The position numbers were made by a program, and so were the translations under genes. DNA of 64,000 bases from an uncultured Poribacteria bacterium (GTDB lineage: Bacteria > Poribacteria > WGA-4E > WGA-3G): positions 3,040,001 through 3,104,000 of the forward strand of contig CATQHZ020000001.1 in assembly GCA_958296135.2 (NCBI GenBank), written 5' to 3'. The notes below the pieces were generated by a model. The model worked only from the letters and a program-made list of their open reading frames with translations, searched no databases and was not told where the DNA came from. Shown here in pieces: positions 6,875-18,078 of the stretch. The number at the start of each line of letters is the position of its first letter. The first letter of the stretch is position 1.

Positions 6875-7930
6875 ATGCTTTACTCAACCATGGTCCCGGC
6901 AGGACTTGAAAAGATTGCGCGTGAAGAGCTCACGGAACGTTTCGGTAACACGGGCACCCTAAAAATTCTCGCGCCGAAGCCGCGGCGCGTCCTTTTCCAC
7001 TATTCTGGTAACCCGCGCGAACTCCTCTCGCTGCGGACAGCGGAGCATCTGTTTCTTGTCGTCAAGAAGCTGCCGAAGATGAGCCGCTCGCGCGGCTCTT
7101 TGGCAGCCCTGAGCGGCTCACTGGCACGCTTTAATTTCAACGAGACGTTTGACTGCTGCCGACAGATGGGGCTGAAACTTCGCAAGCGCGTGACGTTCCG
7201 GGTGACGAGTCGCTTGTCGGGGCATCGCAACTTCCGTCGGTTGGATCTTCAGCGAGTTGTCGAGAGGGTGTTACGGGAGCACGGATGGCACTTGACAGCA
7301 CCGAACCCCGCGCTGGATGTCTGGGCAGAAGTGCATGGCGACGATGGGTATCTCAGCATCAGGCTTTCGCCGATTGAGATGGCACAACGCCGCTATAAGC
7401 AAGCACACATTCCCGCTTCGCTGAAACCGACACTCGCTTATAGCATGGTGCGGCTTTCACAACCACGCCCGAACGATGTTTTTCTGGACGCGATGTGCGG
7501 CGCAGGCACAATTTTGCTGGAACGCGCGTTTGCCGGCCGCTACCGTTATCTCATCGGCGGCGATATCTCCACAGCAGCGTTGGATGCCACCGTGACGAAT
7601 TTCGGCAGGCAGCATCAACCGCGCCAATTTTTCCACTGGGACGCACGCGCGCTGCCGCTCCAACCGAACACCGTTGATAAAATCGTCTGTAACCTGCCGT
7701 TCGGTGAGACGCACGGAGAGTCGGCACATCTGACAAGCCTATATCGGGACTGCCTCCGTCAATTTGAGGCGGTGCTGAAACCGCGCGGCCGAATGGTGCT
7801 GCTCACCTCGCAGCAAACGCTCCTAGACGAACTCCTCAAACGGCGGCGGAAACTCAAGGTAACGCAACGGTTGTCGGTAGATGTGCGTGGGATGCGCGCG
7901 TGGATTTACGTTATCCTATTGATTAGGTAG
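6875..7930 (+). CDS. THUMP-domain SAM-dependent RNA methyltransferase (Trm14/RlmL-like)
   Basis: N-terminal 'GLEKIAREEL', ASLKPTLAYSMV, DAMCGAGTILLE, GGDI, CNLPFG. Confidence 0.85.
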   Translation: MLYSTMVPAGLEKIAREELTERFGNTGTLKILAPKPRRVLFHYSGNPRELLSLRTAEHLFLVVKKLPKMSRSRGSLAALSGSLARFNFNETFDCCRQMGLKLRKRVTFRVTSRLSGHRNFRRLDLQRVVERVLREHGWHLTAPNPALDVWAEVHGDDGYLSIRLSPIEMAQRRYKQAHIPASLKPTLAYSMVRLSQPRPNDVFLDAMCGAGTILLERAFAGRYRYLIGGDISTAALDATVTNFGRQHQPRQFFHWDARALPLQPNTVDKIVCNLPFGETHGESAHLTSLYRDCLRQFEAVLKPRGRMVLLTSQQTLLDELLKRRRKLKVTQRLSVDVRGMRAWIYVILLIR

Positions 7931-9864: not shown

Positions 9865-11271
9865 ATGGGAGCCGAGACCCCTTACAGCATTTTCAATACG
9901 CGCCCGCTTGCCCAGGTCTATCGCGAAATCCAAGAGGTCTATCTTGAAAACGCGCGTCCCTGGGTCATCGGCTACAGCGGCGGGAAAGACTCAACGACAG
10001 CACTCCAACTCGTTTGGTATGCTCTCGCGGAACTGCCGCCCGAAAAACGGAAGTATCCGGTCTACGTCATTTCATCCGATACCCTCGTCGAAACACCGGT
10101 GATTGTCAGTTACATTACCGGCACGCTGGCGCGAATTGAAACGCACGCGCGCGAACAACAGATGCCTTTTCAGACCGAACTCGTTCGGCCGAAAACCGAA
10201 GACACCTTTTGGGTGAACCTCATCGGGAAGGGTTACCCCGCGCCCTATTCACGCTTTCGGTGGTGCACCGACCGGCTCAAGATCCAGCCGGCGAATCGGT
10301 TCATTTTGGACAAAGCCTCGGTGCACGGCGAGGTTATCCTCGTGCTCGGTTCGCGCAAAGGGGAGAGTGCCACCCGCGACCAGGTGTTGAGTCTGCATCG
10401 TCTCAAAGATTCGTTGCTATCAAGGCATACCACGCTGCCGAATGCCTACGTCTATACGCCGATTGTCGATTTTGGATTGAACGATGTGTGGATGTATCTG
10501 CTTAGCAATCCGCCGCCGTGGGGCGGCAATAACAAGCAGCTCGTCACGCTCTACCGAAACGCCAACGCGCAAGGCGAATGTCCGCTCGTCGTTGACGAAA
10601 CCACGCCTTCGTGCGGAAACAGCCGCTTTGGATGCTGGACCTGCACGGTTGTCTCGAAAGACCGGTCTATGGAAGGACTCATTGACAACGGCGAAGAGTG
10701 GATGTTGCCGCTGCTGGAATTCCGGGACTTCCTCGCCGAAACGCAAGACCCGGAACGGAAGGCAGATATTCGGGAGCATAGACGGCGGAATGGAAAGATA
10801 ACGTTCGTGGGAGAGAAACTGATTCGGGGCCCCTATACGCTGGAATTCTGTAAGGCACTGTTGCGGCGGCTTCTTGAAACCCAGCAGCAGGTCCGCGAAG
10901 AAGGACCGGATCCGAACCTCCAACTCATCACGGATGCTGAATTGGAAGAGATTCGTAATATCTGGCGGACTGAACGTTCGGATTGGGAAGATGCCGTACC
11001 GCAGATTTACAAGGAAGTTGTCGGTGAGCACGAGTGGATTGTTGACAACACAACCGCTTTTAACGGCGACGATAAACTGTTGTTGTCCAAAATCTGTGAC
11101 GCAAACGGTATTCCCGTTGAACTCGTAGCAAAACTACTTGATACCGAACGACAGATGGATGGCATGAGCCGTCGCGCGGGAATCCAGTCCCGGATTGATG
11201 CAATCTTTCACGAGGACTGGGATTCAGAGGAAGAAGCTCGCGCCCGTCTAACTAGAAGTAATCAATTATGA
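9865..11271 (+). CDS. dndC: DNA phosphorothioation sulfurtransferase DndC (PAPS-reductase fold, Fe-S)
   Basis: PWVIGYSGGKDST, SDTLVETP, FWVNLIGKGYPAP, RWCTDRLKIQP, GECPLVVD..SCGNSRFGCWTCTVV. Confidence 0.96.
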   Translation: MGAETPYSIFNTRPLAQVYREIQEVYLENARPWVIGYSGGKDSTTALQLVWYALAELPPEKRKYPVYVISSDTLVETPVIVSYITGTLARIETHAREQQMPFQTELVRPKTEDTFWVNLIGKGYPAPYSRFRWCTDRLKIQPANRFILDKASVHGEVILVLGSRKGESATRDQVLSLHRLKDSLLSRHTTLPNAYVYTPIVDFGLNDVWMYLLSNPPPWGGNNKQLVTLYRNANAQGECPLVVDETTPSCGNSRFGCWTCTVVSKDRSMEGLIDNGEEWMLPLLEFRDFLAETQDPERKADIREHRRRNGKITFVGEKLIRGPYTLEFCKALLRRLLETQQQVREEGPDPNLQLITDAELEEIRNIWRTERSDWEDAVPQIYKEVVGEHEWIVDNTTAFNGDDKLLLSKICDANGIPVELVAKLLDTERQMDGMSRRAGIQSRIDAIFHEDWDSEEEARARLTRSNQL

Positions 11272-13271
11272 TTATCCATACCCTCACCGTTAACAACTTT
11301 GGTTTGTTCCGTGGAGAGCATACTCTTCCGTTAACACCGAACGGTACGGAGTCCGTCATCCTTATCGGTGGAATGAACGGTGCTGGCAAAACGACGCTGC
11401 TGGAGGCGGTTCGTCTTTGTCTGTACGGCAAGCGTGCCCTCGGGAATCGGGTTAGCCTCAATGAATATCATGAGTACCTCTCTAAAATGATTCATCGAGA
11501 TTCTCGTTTCGCGGGGAGTTTAAATTACGCTTCTGTGTCACTTGAATTTGAGTATGCCTACGGAGCAGAAAAAAGAGAGTACCGGGTCAAACGTTTTTGG
11601 CAACAGTGCGGCAAAGCAGTTGACGAGGTTTTGACTGTCTCTGAACCTCATCAGTCAAGCAACCATTTTGAGACAGAACATTGGCAGGACTACCTCAATG
11701 GACTCCTCCCAATTGGAGTATCCCAGTTCTTTTTTTTTGATGGCGAGGATATCCAGAAATTGGCGGACGACTCCAGTCACGACGTATTCCTTGCGGATTC
11801 GATTAAGGCGTTGCTCGGGCTAAATCTCGTTGAGCGGCTGCAATCGGATTTGCGAATCTACTCAAACCGGTTGGTTAAGCGAGGAAGTCCGGTCTCGGTG
11901 CAAGAAGAAATTGGGGCGGTGGAGTCAGTAGTCACCTCTCTTGAAGTGTCTCTTTCAAATGTGACTGCAGAAAAGGAATCTCTACAGTCGCAGATTGAGG
12001 AGTTATCAGCAGCAATTACCCAACAAGAAGAGCGGATTGCAGCCGAAGGCGGAAGTTACGCCCAAAGTCGCGAAAACCTGAAACTTCAGCGAGAGCAACT
12101 GCAGAACGAGATTGAGGAATTAGAAGACGAGATTCGCGTATTTTGTGACGAATTGTTTCCGTTCGCTTTAGCACCGGGACTTCTCGAGGAATTGGCGGAA
12201 CGGCTTCTTAAAGAGATGGAGTTGGATAAGTGGGAAGCGACAAACAACGCGTTAACTGAGCATAACACTGCGGTGCTTGAAACGCTGGGATCGGGCAATT
12301 TTTGGGAAGGGGTTTCCCTATCGGGGGAACAAATCGCGGATATTCGCGCCAAACTTGCTCCGCTGCTCAAGACACAATTTGAGCGTCCCGAATCGTTGCG
12401 CGGTTTCACAAAACTCAGGGACCGGTCTCCATCGGAACGGCAGCAACTGTTAAAATGGATTGATGCCTGTCTCAATGAAGTTCCGCGGCAAGCGAAGAAG
12501 TTGTTCAATGCACTGGAAAAAGCACAAACCGAACTACAGCAGGTGGAACAGGCTCTTCAGAGAGTGCCATCCGACGAAGTTTTGAAGCCGCTAATCGAAA
12601 AACACTCGGAGTTGAATCAAACGCTGGGGCAACTGCAAAAGCAGGAGCAAGATACAGAAAAATTCGTGCTCTCCTTGACACGTCAATTGGCAGAAACAGA
12701 GCGCAGATTAGAAAGGTTGCGTCAAGCCAAACGGTTGGACGAAGCGCACCGCGAACGCCAAAAACGGGTGAGCGATGTGCAATCGGTGCTCTCTAAGTAC
12801 ACGACAAAACTCACCGGGACAAAAATTTTGACTTTGGGAAACACTATTGTAGAGGGTTTTAACCAACTCTCTCACAAGCGGAATAGAATCAAACGGGTTG
12901 AGATACATCCGCGGACGTTTGCGGTAACGCTCTATGATACCTACAATCGTCCTGTGGCCAAGGAAGAATTATCAGCGGGTGAAAAGCAGATTTACACAAC
13001 CGCGCTCTTATGGGGGTTGGCGAAGACCTCGGGCAAGGTATTGCCGATGATTCTTGACACGCCTCTAGGACGTTTAGATAGTGACCATCGCCGTCTGCTG
13101 ATTGAGCGGTATTTTCCGTATGTCAGTCATCAAGTGGTTTTGCTTTCAACGGATACGGAAGTTGACGAGCATCTCTACGAGCTGCTGACCCCTCACATTT
13201 CGCATGCGTTCCGGTTGGTGTATCAGCATACAGAAGTTCACACCACTATTGAGAATGGCTATTTCGGATAA
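11268..13271 (+). CDS. dndD: DNA sulfur modification SMC-like ATPase DndD
   Basis: Walker A GMNGAGKTT, FFFFDGE, long coiled coil, LSAGEKQ signature, DTPLGRLDSDHR, SHQVVLLSTDTE; overlaps dndC stop. Confidence 0.95.
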   Translation: MIIHTLTVNNFGLFRGEHTLPLTPNGTESVILIGGMNGAGKTTLLEAVRLCLYGKRALGNRVSLNEYHEYLSKMIHRDSRFAGSLNYASVSLEFEYAYGAEKREYRVKRFWQQCGKAVDEVLTVSEPHQSSNHFETEHWQDYLNGLLPIGVSQFFFFDGEDIQKLADDSSHDVFLADSIKALLGLNLVERLQSDLRIYSNRLVKRGSPVSVQEEIGAVESVVTSLEVSLSNVTAEKESLQSQIEELSAAITQQEERIAAEGGSYAQSRENLKLQREQLQNEIEELEDEIRVFCDELFPFALAPGLLEELAERLLKEMELDKWEATNNALTEHNTAVLETLGSGNFWEGVSLSGEQIADIRAKLAPLLKTQFERPESLRGFTKLRDRSPSERQQLLKWIDACLNEVPRQAKKLFNALEKAQTELQQVEQALQRVPSDEVLKPLIEKHSELNQTLGQLQKQEQDTEKFVLSLTRQLAETERRLERLRQAKRLDEAHRERQKRVSDVQSVLSKYTTKLTGTKILTLGNTIVEGFNQLSHKRNRIKRVEIHPRTFAVTLYDTYNRPVAKEELSAGEKQIYTTALLWGLAKTSGKVLPMILDTPLGRLDSDHRRLLIERYFPYVSHQVVLLSTDTEVDEHLYELLTPHISHAFRLVYQHTEVHTTIENGYFG

Positions 13272-13276
13272 GCATT

Positions 13277-13684
13277 ATGCAATTCAACCGAATTCGCCTT
13301 TCTGAGGATTCCCGCATCAAGTTGGGAATTTTAAAGACGCGCACGGGTTTGCTACCCAACGTTCTCTGTCGAATTGGGTTGATGCTTTCGTTAACAAACC
13401 CGAGCGAACCAGAACTTGATGCTGATGCAACGGATGGTTCCGAGTTTAACCGCTACACGCTTACGGGTGAGTGGGATCCACTGATTGTAGCACTCTTGGA
13501 GGAAAGGGTTCTCTCCAAAAGGCTTTGTGCGGACAATCAAGAATTTGGCGCGGATAGGGAAGAGTTTGACAATGAAAAACTTGTTAAATACTTTCGAGCG
13601 CACCTGAATCACGGAGTGCGTATGCTTCACGGCCGCGTGAGGGGATTGGAGGATTTAGCGAACCTCCTAATGCCTGTGCCTTAA
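13277..13684 (+). CDS. dndE: DNA sulfur modification protein DndE
   Basis: RIRLS..LKTRTGLLPNVLCRIGLMLSL, EFNRYTLTGEWD, FRAHLNHG; position after dndD. Confidence 0.92.
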   Translation: MQFNRIRLSEDSRIKLGILKTRTGLLPNVLCRIGLMLSLTNPSEPELDADATDGSEFNRYTLTGEWDPLIVALLEERVLSKRLCADNQEFGADREEFDNEKLVKYFRAHLNHGVRMLHGRVRGLEDLANLLMPVP

Positions 13685-13784
13685 TATTTCGTCAAACGAG
13701 TCCGGTAGGCGCGCTTCGTAAGCATGCTCCCTTGGATTGACGCGCGCTTACAAAGTGGATCTACTAGTATTAAGTCTCTCTAAC

Positions 13785-14810
13785 CTATTTCCCCCATTCC
13801 CGCTCGTACTGACTCGTTGAAGGCCGAGCCTCAATTCCCAATTCTCGTTTCAATGCAAGGGCAAGGTCTACACCATGCCCACCCCGGCTGTTATCCGTGA
13901 TAACCTTCTTGGCTCCAGTAGCACGTACATATTCAAGAGTCCCTATATAGTCAGCATGGTCTGAAAGTGATACGCAAAATGCCTTCTCTGAATATTCTAC
14001 GACTGGATCCCCGAAGCGGCTCATGTATGCACTCAACACGATTCTGGAAGTAGCTTCACCCTTGTCAGTTGGGAACCTCTCTCTGGTTCCATAAAGACGA
14101 ATGTACCTTCCTTCGCTGCAAGCGAGTTTTGCTTCTGCTGTCTCAGCATTAAGGACCTTTGTTAGGCTATATCCATGCTGCTGATACACTCTTAATTCAT
14201 CACAGAGCCGTGCGCTTGCAATGATCGGGAATTTGACTGCATCATCTAGACAAGAAGCTGCTCTTTGTAGGGTACCGCGGTGAGATAAAATTAGAACCGG
14301 GCCAACTTTTATCCGCTCAACAACTAACTCTATAAAGCGGCCATTTGCCTCTTCTTGGGTGAATTTTCGGACTGATTCAGGAGATCCGTAGGTGCTATCC
14401 AATACGAGTTCCTCAACCTCTATAACCTCGCCGAGAGGCCAAGCGAAATCCCCTGAGTATCCGCACCTTCCTCCATCAGGTAACGTTACTTCAACCTGCA
14501 CAGAACCTAGCATGTGTCCGTTATCCAGCAACCGGATCTGACATTCAGCTAGATGAATAGGATGCCCTAATGAAACAGCCTTGACGTTAGCGCGATACGG
14601 GATGTCTGCATTGTATTCAGCTATCAACAGGTCGCGAGTGGGCTGAGTCATAATAATATGCTTCTGATGCCCTTTGCTCCTATCAAAGCCATCCATGTGA
14701 TCTTCATGGACATGGGTTTGTACGCGAATCGGATATTCGTGAACGAAACCGTCACAAGTTACCACATCACCTAGTGTAACCGCACCCGATCCAGAAATGT
14801 CAATCCTCAT
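13785..14810 (-). CDS. Metallo-beta-lactamase / beta-CASP family nuclease
   Basis: THVHEDH (HxHxDH), GHMLGS, YSGDF, LVLDSTYG, SDHADY: the motif set of SNM1/Artemis-like and ligase-associated MBL exonucleases. Confidence 0.85.
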   Translation of the reverse strand: MRIDISGSGAVTLGDVVTCDGFVHEYPIRVQTHVHEDHMDGFDRSKGHQKHIIMTQPTRDLLIAEYNADIPYRANVKAVSLGHPIHLAECQIRLLDNGHMLGSVQVEVTLPDGGRCGYSGDFAWPLGEVIEVEELVLDSTYGSPESVRKFTQEEANGRFIELVVERIKVGPVLILSHRGTLQRAASCLDDAVKFPIIASARLCDELRVYQQHGYSLTKVLNAETAEAKLACSEGRYIRLYGTRERFPTDKGEATSRIVLSAYMSRFGDPVVEYSEKAFCVSLSDHADYIGTLEYVRATGAKKVITDNSRGGHGVDLALALKRELGIEARPSTSQYEREWGK

Positions 14811-14815
14811 ACAAC

Positions 14816-15526
14816 CTAATCCTTGCTAGTTAATTCTCGTGTTAGATATTCCGTGATTGCTTGTTCAAAGCCCTCAGGAAGTGACATAATCGCGGCATGA
14901 AGCCGATCGTCTCCAATTAGAAGAAAATATCCATCACCAAGTTTGGATCCCAATCGCGGAATATTAGGACTGTATCGATCTAGTGCAGATTGCAGAAGAT
15001 TATCACGTTCTAGTTGTGAAATCTGCCTGAGACTATCTTTCAACCTTTCAGATTGGAGACTTCCGACAATCACATGCCTTCTCTCAATGACTGGACGTTG
15101 ATTCAAGACAGCCTTCATGCACTCTTTGATGGAGTTTCCCGAGCGCTGCCGGATTTGAACAACCTGCATGATCTCGGATTTGCTAAACCGATTCTCCAAC
15201 GCGGCTGTTGCTAATGCAAGTTGCTCTTGCTCGTCCTCAAGTCGGGCAATCTCAGAACCGGCAGTAAAGGACAAGGTTGCCGGATCAGACCCCCATCCGA
15301 TGAGTTGTTGCACGTCAGGAGGTAGCCGGAGAAGGCGGATGAAACGCCCGATTATAGATGAATCCTCAAGGAGGAGCCGGGCAGCAATCTCCCGCCTTTT
15401 TTCACCTGCCTCTAATGCTTTGTCCATAAGTTTCGCGACTTCAACCGGCGAAAGCGGCCGCGCCGATTTATGCGTTCCTACGGAAAGAATAAGCTGACGT
15501 ACTTCGGACGACGACAACCCTCTCAC
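14816..15526 (-). CDS. ParB-like HTH/helical-domain protein lacking the N-terminal CTPase domain
   Basis: RPLSPVEVAK..GEKRREIAARL..IGRFIRLLRLPPDVQQLI..LSFTAGSEIARL..EQLALA aligns by eye with the central ParB/Spo0J HTH region; GTGA overlap with the upstream gene. Confidence 0.65.
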   Translation of the reverse strand: MRGLSSSEVRQLILSVGTHKSARPLSPVEVAKLMDKALEAGEKRREIAARLLLEDSSIIGRFIRLLRLPPDVQQLIGWGSDPATLSFTAGSEIARLEDEQEQLALATAALENRFSKSEIMQVVQIRQRSGNSIKECMKAVLNQRPVIERRHVIVGSLQSERLKDSLRQISQLERDNLLQSALDRYSPNIPRLGSKLGDGYFLLIGDDRLHAAIMSLPEGFEQAITEYLTRELTSKD

Positions 15527-16356
15527 ACTATACCTCTGTCAGGATCGTAGCCGCCGCTTGATAATCCGCTTTCAATCAGTTGGGCAGCTGCCTCGTCTAC
15601 GGTAGTGCCTTCGTCCTTCGCAAATTGCCCTAACGAGTTGCGAATTTGCTTTCCAAGGGTCACAGTAATTTGCGTAACCTTTTCGCCGCTTTTCGCTCGT
15701 TCTACAAGTTCATCCACAGAGGCATCGGAATCATCTCTTAGTTTCTTGCGGAGATTCTCTTGCTGCGCGCCGCTCATCTGTGACATTTCTTTGGCGAGTT
15801 TCACGGAATCTTGCGGGTCGGGATCGCCCTCGGTTGCCAGGGCATCCTGGGCACGAAGGGCAGCCTTCAAGGTGGCGTCTCCCTTTTCAACAACCCTTTT
15901 GAGTTCAGGAATTAGACGGTCATATTTGACATATTCGCGCACTTTTTCGTAGGGTAGTCCGGTTTCGTCCGCGACCTCTTTCATTGACGCGTAGTGCTTA
16001 TACAGGTATGTGCAAACGTCAATCAGGTCCTTCCGGTTTAGGTTGCGACGGACAAGGTTTTCGGTTACCGATAATACCTTCGCTTGGATTTCTTCCACGC
16101 GGTCGTCAAGGATACCGGCTTTAATCGTTTTTTTACCAAGTCTCTGGTGTGCCAAAAAACGCCTTTGGCCCAGTATAATTTCATACTTTTCACCAGATTC
16201 CAAAGGAGCGACCAGGATAGGTTCCAAGAGTCCTACTTTGGCAATGCTGTCTGCGATCTCATCAATCTCTTTCCCAACATCGCTTAAGCGGACTTGGCTC
16301 GTTCCGATTACTAGATCTTCCAAAGGAATATCTTTAAATTCGACAATATTTGCCAT
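15523..16356 (-). CDS. ParB/RepB/Spo0J-family protein (CTPase-fold, HTH, putative C-terminal ribbon-helix-helix)
   Basis: ATG at 16356 with GGAGG RBS; SQVR, IADSIAKVGLLEPILV, YEIILGQRRFLA (GxRR), ENLVRRNL; C-terminal QITVTLGKQIRNSLGQFAKDEGTTVDEAAAQLIESGL is RHH-like. Confidence 0.88.
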   Translation of the reverse strand: MANIVEFKDIPLEDLVIGTSQVRLSDVGKEIDEIADSIAKVGLLEPILVAPLESGEKYEIILGQRRFLAHQRLGKKTIKAGILDDRVEEIQAKVLSVTENLVRRNLNRKDLIDVCTYLYKHYASMKEVADETGLPYEKVREYVKYDRLIPELKRVVEKGDATLKAALRAQDALATEGDPDPQDSVKLAKEMSQMSGAQQENLRKKLRDDSDASVDELVERAKSGEKVTQITVTLGKQIRNSLGQFAKDEGTTVDEAAAQLIESGLSSGGYDPDRGIV

Positions 16357-16432
16357 CTTAGTTTCCTCCGCATTGAGACACAGTTGATACTCCACTAGGG
16401 GGTCTCGTTTATGTCCCCCAGATATTTTCGAT

Positions 16433-16476
16433 TGTTGACATAAAGACTGCAACACAGGAACTTTGTGATGTCAACA
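16433..16476. promoter_or_regulatory. Inverted repeat between RNA copy B and the parB-like start (operator, attenuator or processing hairpin)
   Basis: TGTTGACAT(16433-16441)...ATGTCAACA(16468-16476) with inner AAAG/CTTT pairing. Confidence 0.45.
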
Positions 16477-16498
16477 TCTTTGTAAATAAACTATTGTC

Positions 16499-16675
16499 GG
16501 AGTTGCAGTGCGGATTCGCGAGTCTCCGGCCCCACAAGTTGACTGCCTCCGCCTTTGAGTTCTCGGTGTTGACGCGACAGCAACGACGCGTCTTTGTGAA
16601 CGAAGCGCGACGCGCGCTCGGTTCTGTGCAGTCCGAGGGCCGCCTCTTCCGCTGCGACCGGCCCGGCGCAATTCC
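16499..16675 (-). ncRNA. Candidate structured ncRNA, tandem copy B
   Basis: Own promoter at 16684-16712. Ends pair (GGAATTGCG/TGCAACTCC); nested stems CGGCCCT/GGGGCCG, GACTGC/GCAGTC, GAAC-GAGCGCG/CGCGCTT-GTTC, GACGCG/CGCGTC. Confidence 0.65.
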
Positions 16676-16683
16676 TCTTAAAT

Positions 16684-16712
16684 AGCATACCACAAAACGC
16701 GAAAATTTGCAA
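16684..16712 (-). promoter_or_regulatory. sigma70-type promoter of RNA copy B
   Basis: Minus strand TTGCAA-17 nt-TATGCT with TGTGG extended -10. Confidence 0.7.
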
Positions 16713-16744
16713 ACAAAAAATATTAGAGAATTTTCTGTGGAGTC

Positions 16745-16911
16745 GGAGTTGCAGTGCGGATTCGCGAGTCTCCGGCCCCACAAGTTGACTGCCTCCGCCT
16801 TTGAGTTCTCGATGTTGACGCGACAGCAACGACGCGTCCTTGTGAACCATGGTTCTGCGCAGTCCGAAGGGCCGCCTTTCCCGCTGCGACCGGCACGAAC
16901 CCGCGCAATTC
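16745..16911 (-). ncRNA. Candidate structured ncRNA, tandem copy A
   Basis: Direct repeat of copy B at 246-bp period (106 nt with 2 mismatches). 11-bp stem GCGGGTTCGTG/CGCGAATCCGC; the variable hairpin is shortened to GAACCATGGTTC. Confidence 0.65.
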
Positions 16912-16920
16912 GTCGTGGAT

Positions 16921-16949
16921 AGAATACCACAGAAAACGAAATTTTGCAA
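16921..16949 (-). promoter_or_regulatory. sigma70-type promoter of RNA copy A
   Basis: Minus strand TTGCAA-17 nt-TATTCT with TGTGG extended -10. Confidence 0.7.
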
Positions 16950-17134
16950 ACAAAAAACGTTCGCGAAATTTTCGTGGATACGGTATCAACGCTTTCATTT
17001 TAGAAAAATGCCAATTTGTCTCAACCACTTTTTTGCGCAAAGCGATGCCTTAACATCGGTTTTTGAGGATTTCGGCACAAATTAACCAAACCTTCTCTCA
17101 ATTTTACCACATTTCCAAAAAAAACAAAATGTTC

Positions 17135-17163
17135 TTGACAAATTTATCAGAAAATAATAGAAT
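17135..17163 (+). promoter_or_regulatory. sigma70 promoter for the secreted paralog pair
   Basis: TTGACA-17 nt-TAGAAT. Confidence 0.65.
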
Positions 17164-17244
17164 ACCTAGATTGACACGCTGTTCGCGCCAAATGCGCGCA
17201 ACAGAAATTATGAATATCTCTAACCAACAGGAGGAATCTTGTTT

Positions 17245-18078
17245 ATGAGACTCTTTATTACCGTTGCTTGTGTGCTGTGTGCTGCAGCTATCATGCTTTG
17301 CGCACCCACAGCCGATGCAGCGAAGAAAATTGATGTCTTCGTTTACACGGAGACAGTGCAGTGGATCGGCCAAGCACAGGCACAAGACGCAGCCGACATC
17401 CTGATCAAGGAAATCGAAGGCAAACAGGGAATCGGCGAAGTTGTCAACGACCCGGCGAAAGCGATTGAAGCCTGGACGAAGAAACATACCGTCGACAAGG
17501 GCAATCACATCATTGTGATGTTCGGGGATTTCCCCAAGGAAATTTACCCGAATGGTAAAGGCGACATCAAGAAGGGCTCCGTCGCTGAGGAGTTCCTCGA
17601 TGCCGGCAATACCTACTCGAACAGTGCCGACTACTTTTTCTGGGGACAAGGAGGCCGGAATGAAAAGGAAGGACTCCAAAACATGATGGATATCCCCGCA
17701 ATCGTTCAGTGGGATGACGACACCCCGATGAAGGTGACGAAGGAAGGAAAGGCACTGACTCCGTCATTGGACGATTACAACACAGACCGGCCCTTCCACC
17801 TCAATGAGCTGGAAGGCGATTGGGAATTGGAAGTCGCCTTCGCTACCGAAACCGGCAAGGGGGATAACGCAACACGCTGCGATCCTTGTATCGTCCGGAA
17901 TACGAAGACGGATGCACGCCTTATCCAGGTCTACCAGACTAACAATCAGGCTGATCCGAAGGGTGAAGTCATCGCGGAGATCATCCTGAACTACTATCTT
18001 GAAGTCACGGGGGCCCTCGAGGTCGACCCGCAGGATAAACTGCCTACACGTTGGGCAGACATCAAAACTCGGAGGTAA
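17245..18078 (+). CDS. Secreted hypothetical protein with C-terminal VDPQDKLPTRWADIK tail
   Basis: AGGAGG RBS; signal peptide ending ADA; paralog of the next gene. Confidence 0.8.
   Translation: MRLFITVACVLCAAAIMLCAPTADAAKKIDVFVYTETVQWIGQAQAQDAADILIKEIEGKQGIGEVVNDPAKAIEAWTKKHTVDKGNHIIVMFGDFPKEIYPNGKGDIKKGSVAEEFLDAGNTYSNSADYFFWGQGGRNEKEGLQNMMDIPAIVQWDDDTPMKVTKEGKALTPSLDDYNTDRPFHLNELEGDWELEVAFATETGKGDNATRCDPCIVRNTKTDARLIQVYQTNNQADPKGEVIAEIILNYYLEVTGALEVDPQDKLPTRWADIKTRR

Follow-up and report, generated by a model that had tools for sequence, protein, structure and literature searches.

A lineage-restricted, putatively cis-acting structured 5' leader in front of unrelated defence operons of Poribacteria

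The subject of this account is a 64,000-nucleotide (nt) stretch of DNA from an uncultured Poribacteria bacterium (assembly GCA_958296135.2, contig CATQHZ020000001.1, positions 3,040,001 to 3,104,000), hereafter the window, and in particular two head-to-tail units on its minus strand (16482-16949), recognized by repeat search and sequence reading. Comparison with similar sequences elsewhere makes it fairly probable that these units are tandem copies, arisen by a 246-bp duplication, of a lineage-specific, cis-acting structured 5' leader common to unrelated defence operons in a group of sponge symbionts. An earlier note on the same DNA had taken them for two stand-alone RNA genes. Instead, they belong to a dispersed family of 5' leaders that are always co-oriented with a downstream gene, and the minus strand between 15900 and 17400 carries no terminator-like site. 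The leader is a new RNA family, narrow in distribution and oddly tied to defence genes; that it is transcribed, acts in cis and is read by a trans-acting factor we infer from sequence comparison. Because the family is narrow and the evidence computational, the claim is offered as a lead rather than as a result.

Members, genes and fold of the leader family

Family members were collected with blastn, nhmmer and two covariance models, R1 for the 3' domain (128 positions, 21 pairs) and R2 for the 5' domain. The window's own genome (G000; assembly 94.7% complete) holds 11 copies of the 3' domain (nhmmer E ≤ 1.3e-15; R1) and 14 of the 5' domain (R2). R1 matches are found in three of the 112 genomes of the taxonomic family, all belonging to the window's genus, g1 (11, 9 and 15 copies), while R2 matches occur in four of 41 relatives (14, 12, 18 and 2 copies, the two-copy genome being from a sister genus) and in three genomes of a phylum-wide sample of 151. 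When 185,579 species genomes were scanned with a pattern, the core motif turned up in 11 stretches, ten of them in two Candidatus Poribacteria bacterium assemblies that are metagenome-assembled genomes (MAGs). The eleventh, in a Ktedonobacterales MAG, is partial, covers the pattern part alone and scores 18.3 bits with R1; we attribute it to chance. Family copies are 64-86% alike, with 11-18 module copies per genome, and the two modules are arranged in the orders 53, 5 alone, 3 alone, 553, 353 and 5353. At 2043-2050 kb of the own genome lies a four-unit array, with one unit per 2.1-2.3 kb; it is plainly the product of local duplications that copied FRG-TPR genes along with the DNA upstream of them. 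In the sister genus (genome G004, L016/L220; about 1740-1790 of L016, plus strand), a 5' domain is followed about 190 nt on by AGGTAGTCAACGCGA...TCGTGCAACACTT, just before a DruF-like gene; to judge by its sequence, this looks like a diverged 3' domain missed by R1.

Other collections yielded no further members. The JGI metagenome contigs hold three pattern stretches and no full element (best R1 score 17.5 bits, over the pattern part), and blastn searches of phage and plasmid collections gave no match to the unit. The 3' motif has no match in the viral contigs of IMG/VR; a looser 5' pattern found at least 120 stretches there, which are put down to chance (best nhmmer E = 1 over 80 loci). The comparison with Rfam that the earlier note had proposed (6S, Y RNA, tmRNA, retron and others) left the element without a family: there is no match at the gathering threshold anywhere in the window (Rfam 15, 4227 families), and at E ≤ 10 the region 16300-17250 gives four weak matches, none over the RNAs, of which the best scores 15.4 bits against a gathering score of 50 bits. 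Eight loci with other copies, scanned at E ≤ 1, gave just two tRNAs and two unrelated weak matches. A literature search found no paper on an RNA motif of Poribacteria and, among the papers listed, none on a structured leader common to unrelated defence systems; supplementary tables of motif surveys may contain a related motif.

In the own genome, all 13 units are followed by an open reading frame (ORF) on the same strand, at a spacing of 2-173 nt in 12 cases and 483 nt in one. In the other genomes, each of the 26 units with at least 250 nt of flank precedes a same-strand ORF of at least 70 amino acids (aa) that starts within 450 nt. Most units have the start codon within 2-80 nt of the leader. 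The first or second gene matches a defence family behind 10 of the 13 own units; the matches comprise FRG/PDC-S15 with TPR, HSDR_N, HerA, TmtA (1e-103), Dcm followed by a restriction endonuclease (REase)-like HATPase, an AAA_15/NsnB-like ATPase, a type I methyltransferase (MTase) with HsdS, CARF-HEPN (1e-121) and RE_BsaWI. Of the ORFs behind the 26 foreign units 11 were scanned, and eight match defence families: PbeA (2e-167), SspD (4e-116), TmtA (3e-194), a type I MTase (2e-212), GmrSD, HKD+Snf2, an REase-like HATPase and DruF. The other three comprise one ORF with no match, one ParA-like ATPase and one protein with TPR only.

Short repeats of another kind were also seen in front of a defence-type operon of the own genome. 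Locus L042 (G000:C1:872300-873300) carries, at 353-716, five copies of a 20-nt repeat, TCGCGCTACGGTKRAARGGG, together with a 53-nt repeat 240 nt apart; they sit in the 5' region of an operon whose large protein was read by eye as a DUF1156-like methylase. A GC-rich CCCGGGGGGCTCTCCTCCCGGGGAG-like hairpin motif, related to that of L042, stands between the promoter and the tandem leaders at G000:C1:3454.8-3455.0 kb. Rfam has no match at L005, the locus with this motif.

Alignments of 28 (A1), 32 (A2) and 26 copies (A3) show two modules, each predicted to fold on its own. Near the predicted 5' end lies the 5' module, a hairpin built from a variable outer stem P1, a conserved helix GGGUUCG/CGGACCC that includes a U·U and, beyond an internal loop, the apical stem P2 (GUCGC/GCGGC). 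Its conserved core reads GGGUUCGUGAA on one strand and CACUCGGACCC on the other; P2 is dispensable: some copies lack it or have other sequence in its place. Hairpin P4 (GACGCG/CGCGUC) and the linker GUCAAnACC open the 3' module, which continues as a long irregular hairpin made up of the stems P5 (AACUC/GAGUU), P6 (GGAG/CUCC), P7 (UUGCAG/CUGCAA) and a variable P8, with a bulge of 9 invariant nucleotides, GCAGUCAAC, between P6 and P7; the conserved tail UAUUCG ends it. On A3, 92.6% of the 761 cells of this modular fold are paired and 8 of its 32 pairs are changed on both sides. Its covariation score is reached by none of 500 shuffles, slid controls pair 31-43%, and separate counts for each domain are consistent with that for the whole fold.

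The earlier note had proposed a different, long-range fold, in which a terminal stem GAATTGCG/TGCAACTC encloses CGGCCCT/GGGGCCG and GACTGC/GCAGTC. The complementary segments it named do exist; their pairing and covariation found no support. Only 68.5% of the cells are paired among 26 members, 181 and 403 of 500 shuffles reach the covariation, and the 5' domain also occurs alone, which together led us to reject that fold. Two pseudoknots were likewise discarded (the bulge with the P4 loop, and a 5'-domain GAC with the GUC of the bulge), as they comprise 3-7 nt and are not kept across copies.

The claim that selection acts on the RNA, by contrast, has gained from the comparison. Changes in the stems are compensatory or of the wobble kind, and the A3 fold holds 97 G·U cells as against 10 A·C cells, an excess that indicates a selected structure on the transcribed (sense, minus) strand. 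This agrees with the earlier reading of the minus strand as the conserved and transcribed one. Between species, 70 of 73 positions of the 3' domain are identical and 97 of 121 in the 5' half, compared with 90.8% identity in the flanking coding DNA; it follows that purifying selection bears mainly on the 3' domain. The unit is non-coding, as supposed before. The two window copies differ by indels of 1, 5 and 15 nt, and the stems are of unequal length among family members. Long ORFs that cross the repeat on either strand are broken by those indels between the copies that are not multiples of three. A conserved small ORF in the 3' domain (SD-like GGAGG, 8 nt, UUG; SD, Shine-Dalgarno) was dismissed because frame and length vary by copy, with UUG-UAG in three copies.

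Every unit examined sits after a promoter-like site. Both window copies carry on the minus strand, as the earlier note had seen, TTGCAA and, after 17 nt, TATGCT or TATTCT, with TGTGG closing the spacer; a consensus sigma-70 scan does not report them because they reach 8 of 12 matches where the threshold is 9. The retention of this promoter had been taken as a sign of selection on the RNA. The genome contains its strict form, TTGCAA-N12-TGTGGTATNNT, 19 times, where base composition would predict 0.006 occurrences, and most of these sites have no RNA element behind them, which shows that the TTGCAA type is the organism's generic strong promoter and does not belong to the RNA as such. Between the two leaders of the tandem pair at G000:C1:3454.3-3454.8 kb there is no promoter.

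The tandem pair, its operon and a possible exchange of cargo

The 246-bp period noticed earlier rests on a 106-nt direct repeat (16496-16601 and 16742-16847; 104 of 106 identical, i.e. 98% with two differences). The rest of the repeated unit is more diverged: blocks of 84 nt (77%), 30 nt (90%) and 31 nt (77%) follow at spacings of 237, 232 and 231, and from these spacings the window copies differ by indels of 15, 1 and 5 nt. The main indel lies, as described before, inside a GAAC...GTTC hairpin, which is short in the upstream copy B (GAACCATGGTTC, 16844-16855) and extended by a GC-rich stem in the downstream copy A (16598-16624). The long form is also present in the sister species, so the short hairpin of copy B looks derived. 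In short-read unitigs from four runs of one sample a repeated 70-nt piece has about twice the depth of its flanks (243 versus 113-123 in X1), and a single unitig, 16536-16771, spans the unique part of one copy and 30 nt of the other. Depth and joining unitig fit a true tandem repeat, with the proviso that the sample may be the assembly's own source.

Copy B is preceded by its predicted promoter at 16921-16949 (-35 TTGCAA, 16944-16949; TGTGG, 16927-16931, closing the 17-nt spacer; -10 TATTCT, 16921-16926), with a predicted start near 16914. The leader itself occupies 16742-16915, with an R2 match at 16838-16915 (46.8 bits) and an R1 match at 16719-16850 (89.9 bits). Its 5' domain is intact (GGGTTCGTG, 16894-16902; P2 GGTCGC/GCGGCC, 16886-16891 with 16870-16875), and it is followed by the short P3 (16844-16855), P4 (16833-16838 with 16817-16822), P6-bulge-P7 (16778-16796), P8 (16755-16777) and the 3' strand of P7 and P6 (16745-16754). 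At the duplication junction the copy loses the 3' strand of P5 (GAGTT), whose place is taken by other sequence.

In copy A the predicted promoter lies at 16684-16712 (-35 TTGCAA, 16707-16712; TGTGG, 16690-16694; -10 TATGCT, 16684-16689) and the predicted start near 16677; the leader, 16482-16678, is matched by R2 at 16607-16678 (39.4 bits) and by R1 at 16475-16604 (108.9 bits). Here it is the 5' domain that is damaged, by deletion of 5 nt of the conserved TTCGTG core and by a C·A mismatch in P1. The long P3 (16598-16624) is followed by P4 (16587-16592 with 16571-16576), the 5' strand of P5 within 16552-16562, P6-bulge-P7 (GGAGGCAGTCAACTTGTGG, 16532-16550), P8 (16509-16531), CTGCAACTCC (16499-16508) and finally the 3' strand of P5 with the tail (ATAGTTTATTTAC, 16482-16494), so that a 4-bp P5 is retained. 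Since the 5' core is lost in copy A and one P5 strand in copy B, both window copies fall short of a complete consensus element.

The spacer between leader A and the first gene contains, on sequence reading, an inverted repeat on the minus strand, 16431-16477, made up of ATGTTGACAT (16468-16477) and ATGTCAACAAT (16431-16441). The ParB/HTH proteins encoded downstream may use this repeat as their operator, or it may form part of a second promoter region. The operon behind it, also on the minus strand, starts with an SD GGAGG and ATG at 16354-16369. Its first gene (15523-16356) encodes 277 aa with a ParB N-terminal domain (Pfam ParB_N, E 7.7e-13) and no significant PADLOC family; the second (14816-15526) encodes 236 aa with a ParB HTH domain (HTH_ParB, E 6.2e-8); and the 341-aa product of the third (13785-14810) has no Pfam or PADLOC match, an HxHxDH-like motif being seen by eye in the translation. 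Converging on this operon from the plus strand are the phosphorothioation genes dndC (9865-11271; PADLOC DndC, E 7e-202), dndD (11268-13271; DndD, E 2e-212) and dndE (13277-13684; Pfam DndE, E 4.7e-22). Upstream of them, at 6875-7930 (plus strand), lies a gene for a 351-aa protein matching PADLOC mad2 (E 6e-17). The mad2/dnd part of the window is a defence island, and the leader-preceded operon (13785-16356), which matches no PADLOC model, is a candidate phosphorothioation-linked restriction or regulatory module.

Comparison with a second genome of the genus, G002, shows how the genes behind a leader may change. At its syntenic locus the upstream gene and a tandem leader pair (519 nt apart) are kept, the upstream flank being 90.8% identical over 1806 nt. 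The homology stops right after the leader tail, GAGUUUAUUUA, and the downstream gene is a different one, encoding an HATPase_c_3 protein; window 13001-16500 has no match in the 8-kb locus, where a third leader precedes PbeA. Similarly, the leader at G000:C1:955.6-955.8 kb and that of L018 cease to be alike inside P8, with HerA as cargo in the one and a ParA-like ATPase in the other. Other leaders have the same gene behind them in both species. It follows that the leader often marks the edge of variable defence cargo. Ordinary homologous recombination, with the leader as homology arm, would suffice for such an exchange and is also compatible with a role as a cis-acting leader.

Possible mode of action and competing explanations

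In general terms the element has the features of a cis-regulatory 5' leader: it lies between promoter and start codon, co-oriented with the gene, and its changes preserve pairs on the sense strand. Transcription would start at a generic strong promoter of the sigma-70 type and continue through the leader into the downstream operon. The invariant unpaired nucleotides could form the docking site of one common trans-acting factor, more likely an RNA-binding protein than a small ligand, which would govern how transcripts from all these defence operons are elongated or how stable they are. This mechanism is favoured because no terminator, antiterminator or element pairing with the ribosome-binding site (RBS) is conserved; for the same reason RBS occlusion or a terminator/antiterminator switch is unlikely.

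Several observations weigh against a cis-acting leader. No RNA run containing the region was found, and transcription, the 5' and 3' ends and read-through are predicted from the DNA. The missing expression platform (terminator or RBS pairing) makes any regulatory effect conjecture. Three of the 13 own units and three of the 11 scanned foreign ones show no defence-family match. The 3' domain is absent from the c4458 copy and present before a look-alike gene in the sister species (both products begin MIAKDIIRDILRDSDYHLDLFTE), which means that it is not essential for expression. In the window itself the start codon lies about 125 nt past the leader, with the inverted repeat, perhaps a control region belonging to the operon, in between. 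As to the fold, minimum free energy structures of both window copies are not more stable than those of shuffles (z = 0.18 and 0.44), and RNAalifold predicts nothing for the 5' domain as aligned by MAFFT and, for the full-length alignment, just P5/P6 and an alternative GCAG pairing. The covariation is modest because the core is nearly invariant, and the shuffle tests overstate support since the sequences come from three or four related genomes.

The distance from the window's start codon, the possible separate control region and the promoter-like site before each window copy would also suit independent small RNA genes, each promoter giving rise to a separate RNA of some 175-180 nt with targets elsewhere, reached perhaps through pairing of the variable hairpins. 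A precedent is the abiF-motif RNA RCd22, described in PMC12373285 as tandem motifs upstream of a defence gene that act in cis and in trans. We consider this quite unlikely for the present family, in view of the close start codons behind most units, the tandem pair without an internal promoter and the lack of terminator-like sites behind the window pair. A search of the variable segments for complementarity to phage, which the earlier note had suggested, gave nothing meaningful either. The 20-mer of P8 has no match in viral contigs; the 21-mer of P3 matches once over 21 nt, in a coding region rich in GC that is otherwise unlike the element and has no model match.

Another possibility is that the element works as DNA, as a promoter-carrying module resembling a miniature inverted-repeat transposable element (MITE) or as a cassette boundary, the RNA fold being incidental or that of single-stranded DNA. 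The dispersal of copies, the four-unit array and the change of cargo right behind two leaders would all fit. One copy, in G001:C193 (locus L010, 1882-2032, minus strand), has two tRNA genes directly upstream, and its position may be the site of an island insertion. The many dispersed copies that the earlier note had named as indicating a MITE are present, but other traits speak against one: the copies lack terminal inverted repeats (there is no inverted repeat of at least 12 nt in 16300-17250), they are diverged rather than near-identical, and all of them point the same way with respect to the genes. That G·U cells outnumber A·C cells speaks for selection on the transcribed strand, and several leaders precede the same gene in both species. 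Nor does the assembly offer the enzymes for such mobility. Tyrosine recombinases (Phage_integrase, PF00589) have no match at E ≤ 0.001 in the whole assembly, in a search whose control was positive in 14 of 14 reference genomes, implying that no XerC/D-type recombinase is detected; an integron cassette with attC is thereby discarded for want of an integrase. Reverse transcriptases (RVT_1, PF00078) have none at E ≤ 0.01, which removes a retron RNA from consideration and extends to the whole assembly the earlier remark that none is nearby. As that note also said, the repeat is not CRISPR-like. We therefore judge a DNA-level module improbable.

Glycine riboswitches and T-boxes are multi-copy leaders with an occasional tandem arrangement. 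The present leaders share this architecture (5353, 553, 353), and they have invariant unpaired nucleotides in the internal loop and bulge as well as two mutually exclusive CUGC pairings with either GCAG copy (seen by eye and with RNAalifold), as would befit a sensor that binds a small molecule, perhaps a nucleotide alarm signal, and switches many defence operons together. To this view, too, we give little likelihood, because neither a conserved terminator/antiterminator nor an RBS-sequestering alternative was found, Rfam is silent even at E ≤ 10, and a metabolite sensor would not usually be limited to one or two genera; its ligand here is purely hypothetical. Very improbable, finally, is functionless hitch-hiking, in which promoter and 5' untranslated region are copied along with segmental duplications in defence islands and the window pair is a decaying neutral duplication. 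The family is young and narrow, both window copies are off consensus and the array at 2043-2050 kb did arise by local duplication; against this, the 3' domain is more conserved between species than coding DNA while the promoter spacer and the 5' half diverge, stem changes are overwhelmingly pair-preserving, and the leader precedes unrelated, non-paralogous genes.

A bolder proposal, speculative and in our estimation unlikely, casts the leader as the RNA-level master switch of an immune regulon. One sensor before more than ten unrelated defence systems, including restriction-modification, phosphorothioation-linked, HerA, TmtA, CARF-HEPN and Druantia-like ones, would respond to one signal of infection or stress (for instance a small ligand or a factor modulated by phage) and raise or release the arsenal as a whole, while the conserved 3' end would double as a homology arm for cargo swaps.

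How the many defence systems of one genome are coordinated is largely unknown, the known cases being repressors that bind DNA and serve a single island, or RNAs each linked to one cognate protein. Were the cis-acting reading correct, a leader common to unrelated defence operons would constitute a new route to coordinate control. Guilt by association with it would then point to new defence genes, such as the ParB-like/HTH/341-aa operon and the family-less 364-aa, 359-aa and 549-aa proteins. Sponge symbionts are reported to be enriched in defence functions (PMC5649159, PMC5099237), and the leader would be a concrete RNA to look for in sponge-symbiont metatranscriptomes.

Comparison with known systems

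The Correia elements of Neisseria are promoter-bearing MITEs. Like such elements and like attC sites, the leader is a dispersed structured repeat of 100-200 nt situated just upstream of genes, of a kind able to supply promoters or cassette boundaries. It differs from them in its missing terminal inverted repeats, fixed orientation and diverged copies, and in the lack of a tyrosine recombinase in the assembly.

The nearest defence-linked case is RCd22 of Clostridioides difficile. This abiF-motif RNA is reported to bind and neutralise its cognate AbiF in the manner of a type III antitoxin; its two tandem conserved motifs lie directly upstream of the anti-phage defence gene that it regulates (PMC12373285). 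It has no sequence or Rfam likeness to the leader, and with more than 15 unrelated protein families behind it, the latter can hardly be an RNA antitoxin to one cognate protein. Another parallel is RptR, which is reported in PMC12255303 to repress through short DNA repeats in promoters, so that one regulator and a conserved signal serve restriction-modification and other defence genes. The signal here is instead a structured element of about 180 nt, predicted to be transcribed, whereas that of RptR consists of short DNA repeats (PMC12255303).

T-box and riboswitch regulons resemble the family in most of its outward features: a structured leader of about 180-200 nt, present many times per genome before functionally related operons, modular and occasionally in tandem. 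They differ from it in that the present leader has no Rfam match and no conserved terminator or antiterminator, stands before heterogeneous defence genes rather than those of one metabolic pathway, and is found in one or two genera. Signals that are borne on leaders and recruit factors for processive antitermination include RfaH ops/JUMPStart, the LoaP leaders, EAR and the put RNA of HK022. These are also short and strongly conserved, and one genome carries them in the 5' leaders of several operons that are accessory or were acquired horizontally; the invariant GGAGGCAG is loosely like the ops pattern, GGCGGTAG. The fold and size of the leader are different. Control of the RfaH or LoaP type was rejected, as exactly one NusG (PF02357), and no specialised paralogue, is encoded in each of 25 out of 25 genomes searched, all carriers among them. 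Although the features just listed set it apart from both classes, by analogy the leader would seem most like the multi-copy leader regulons (T-boxes and riboswitches) or the leader-borne antitermination signals.

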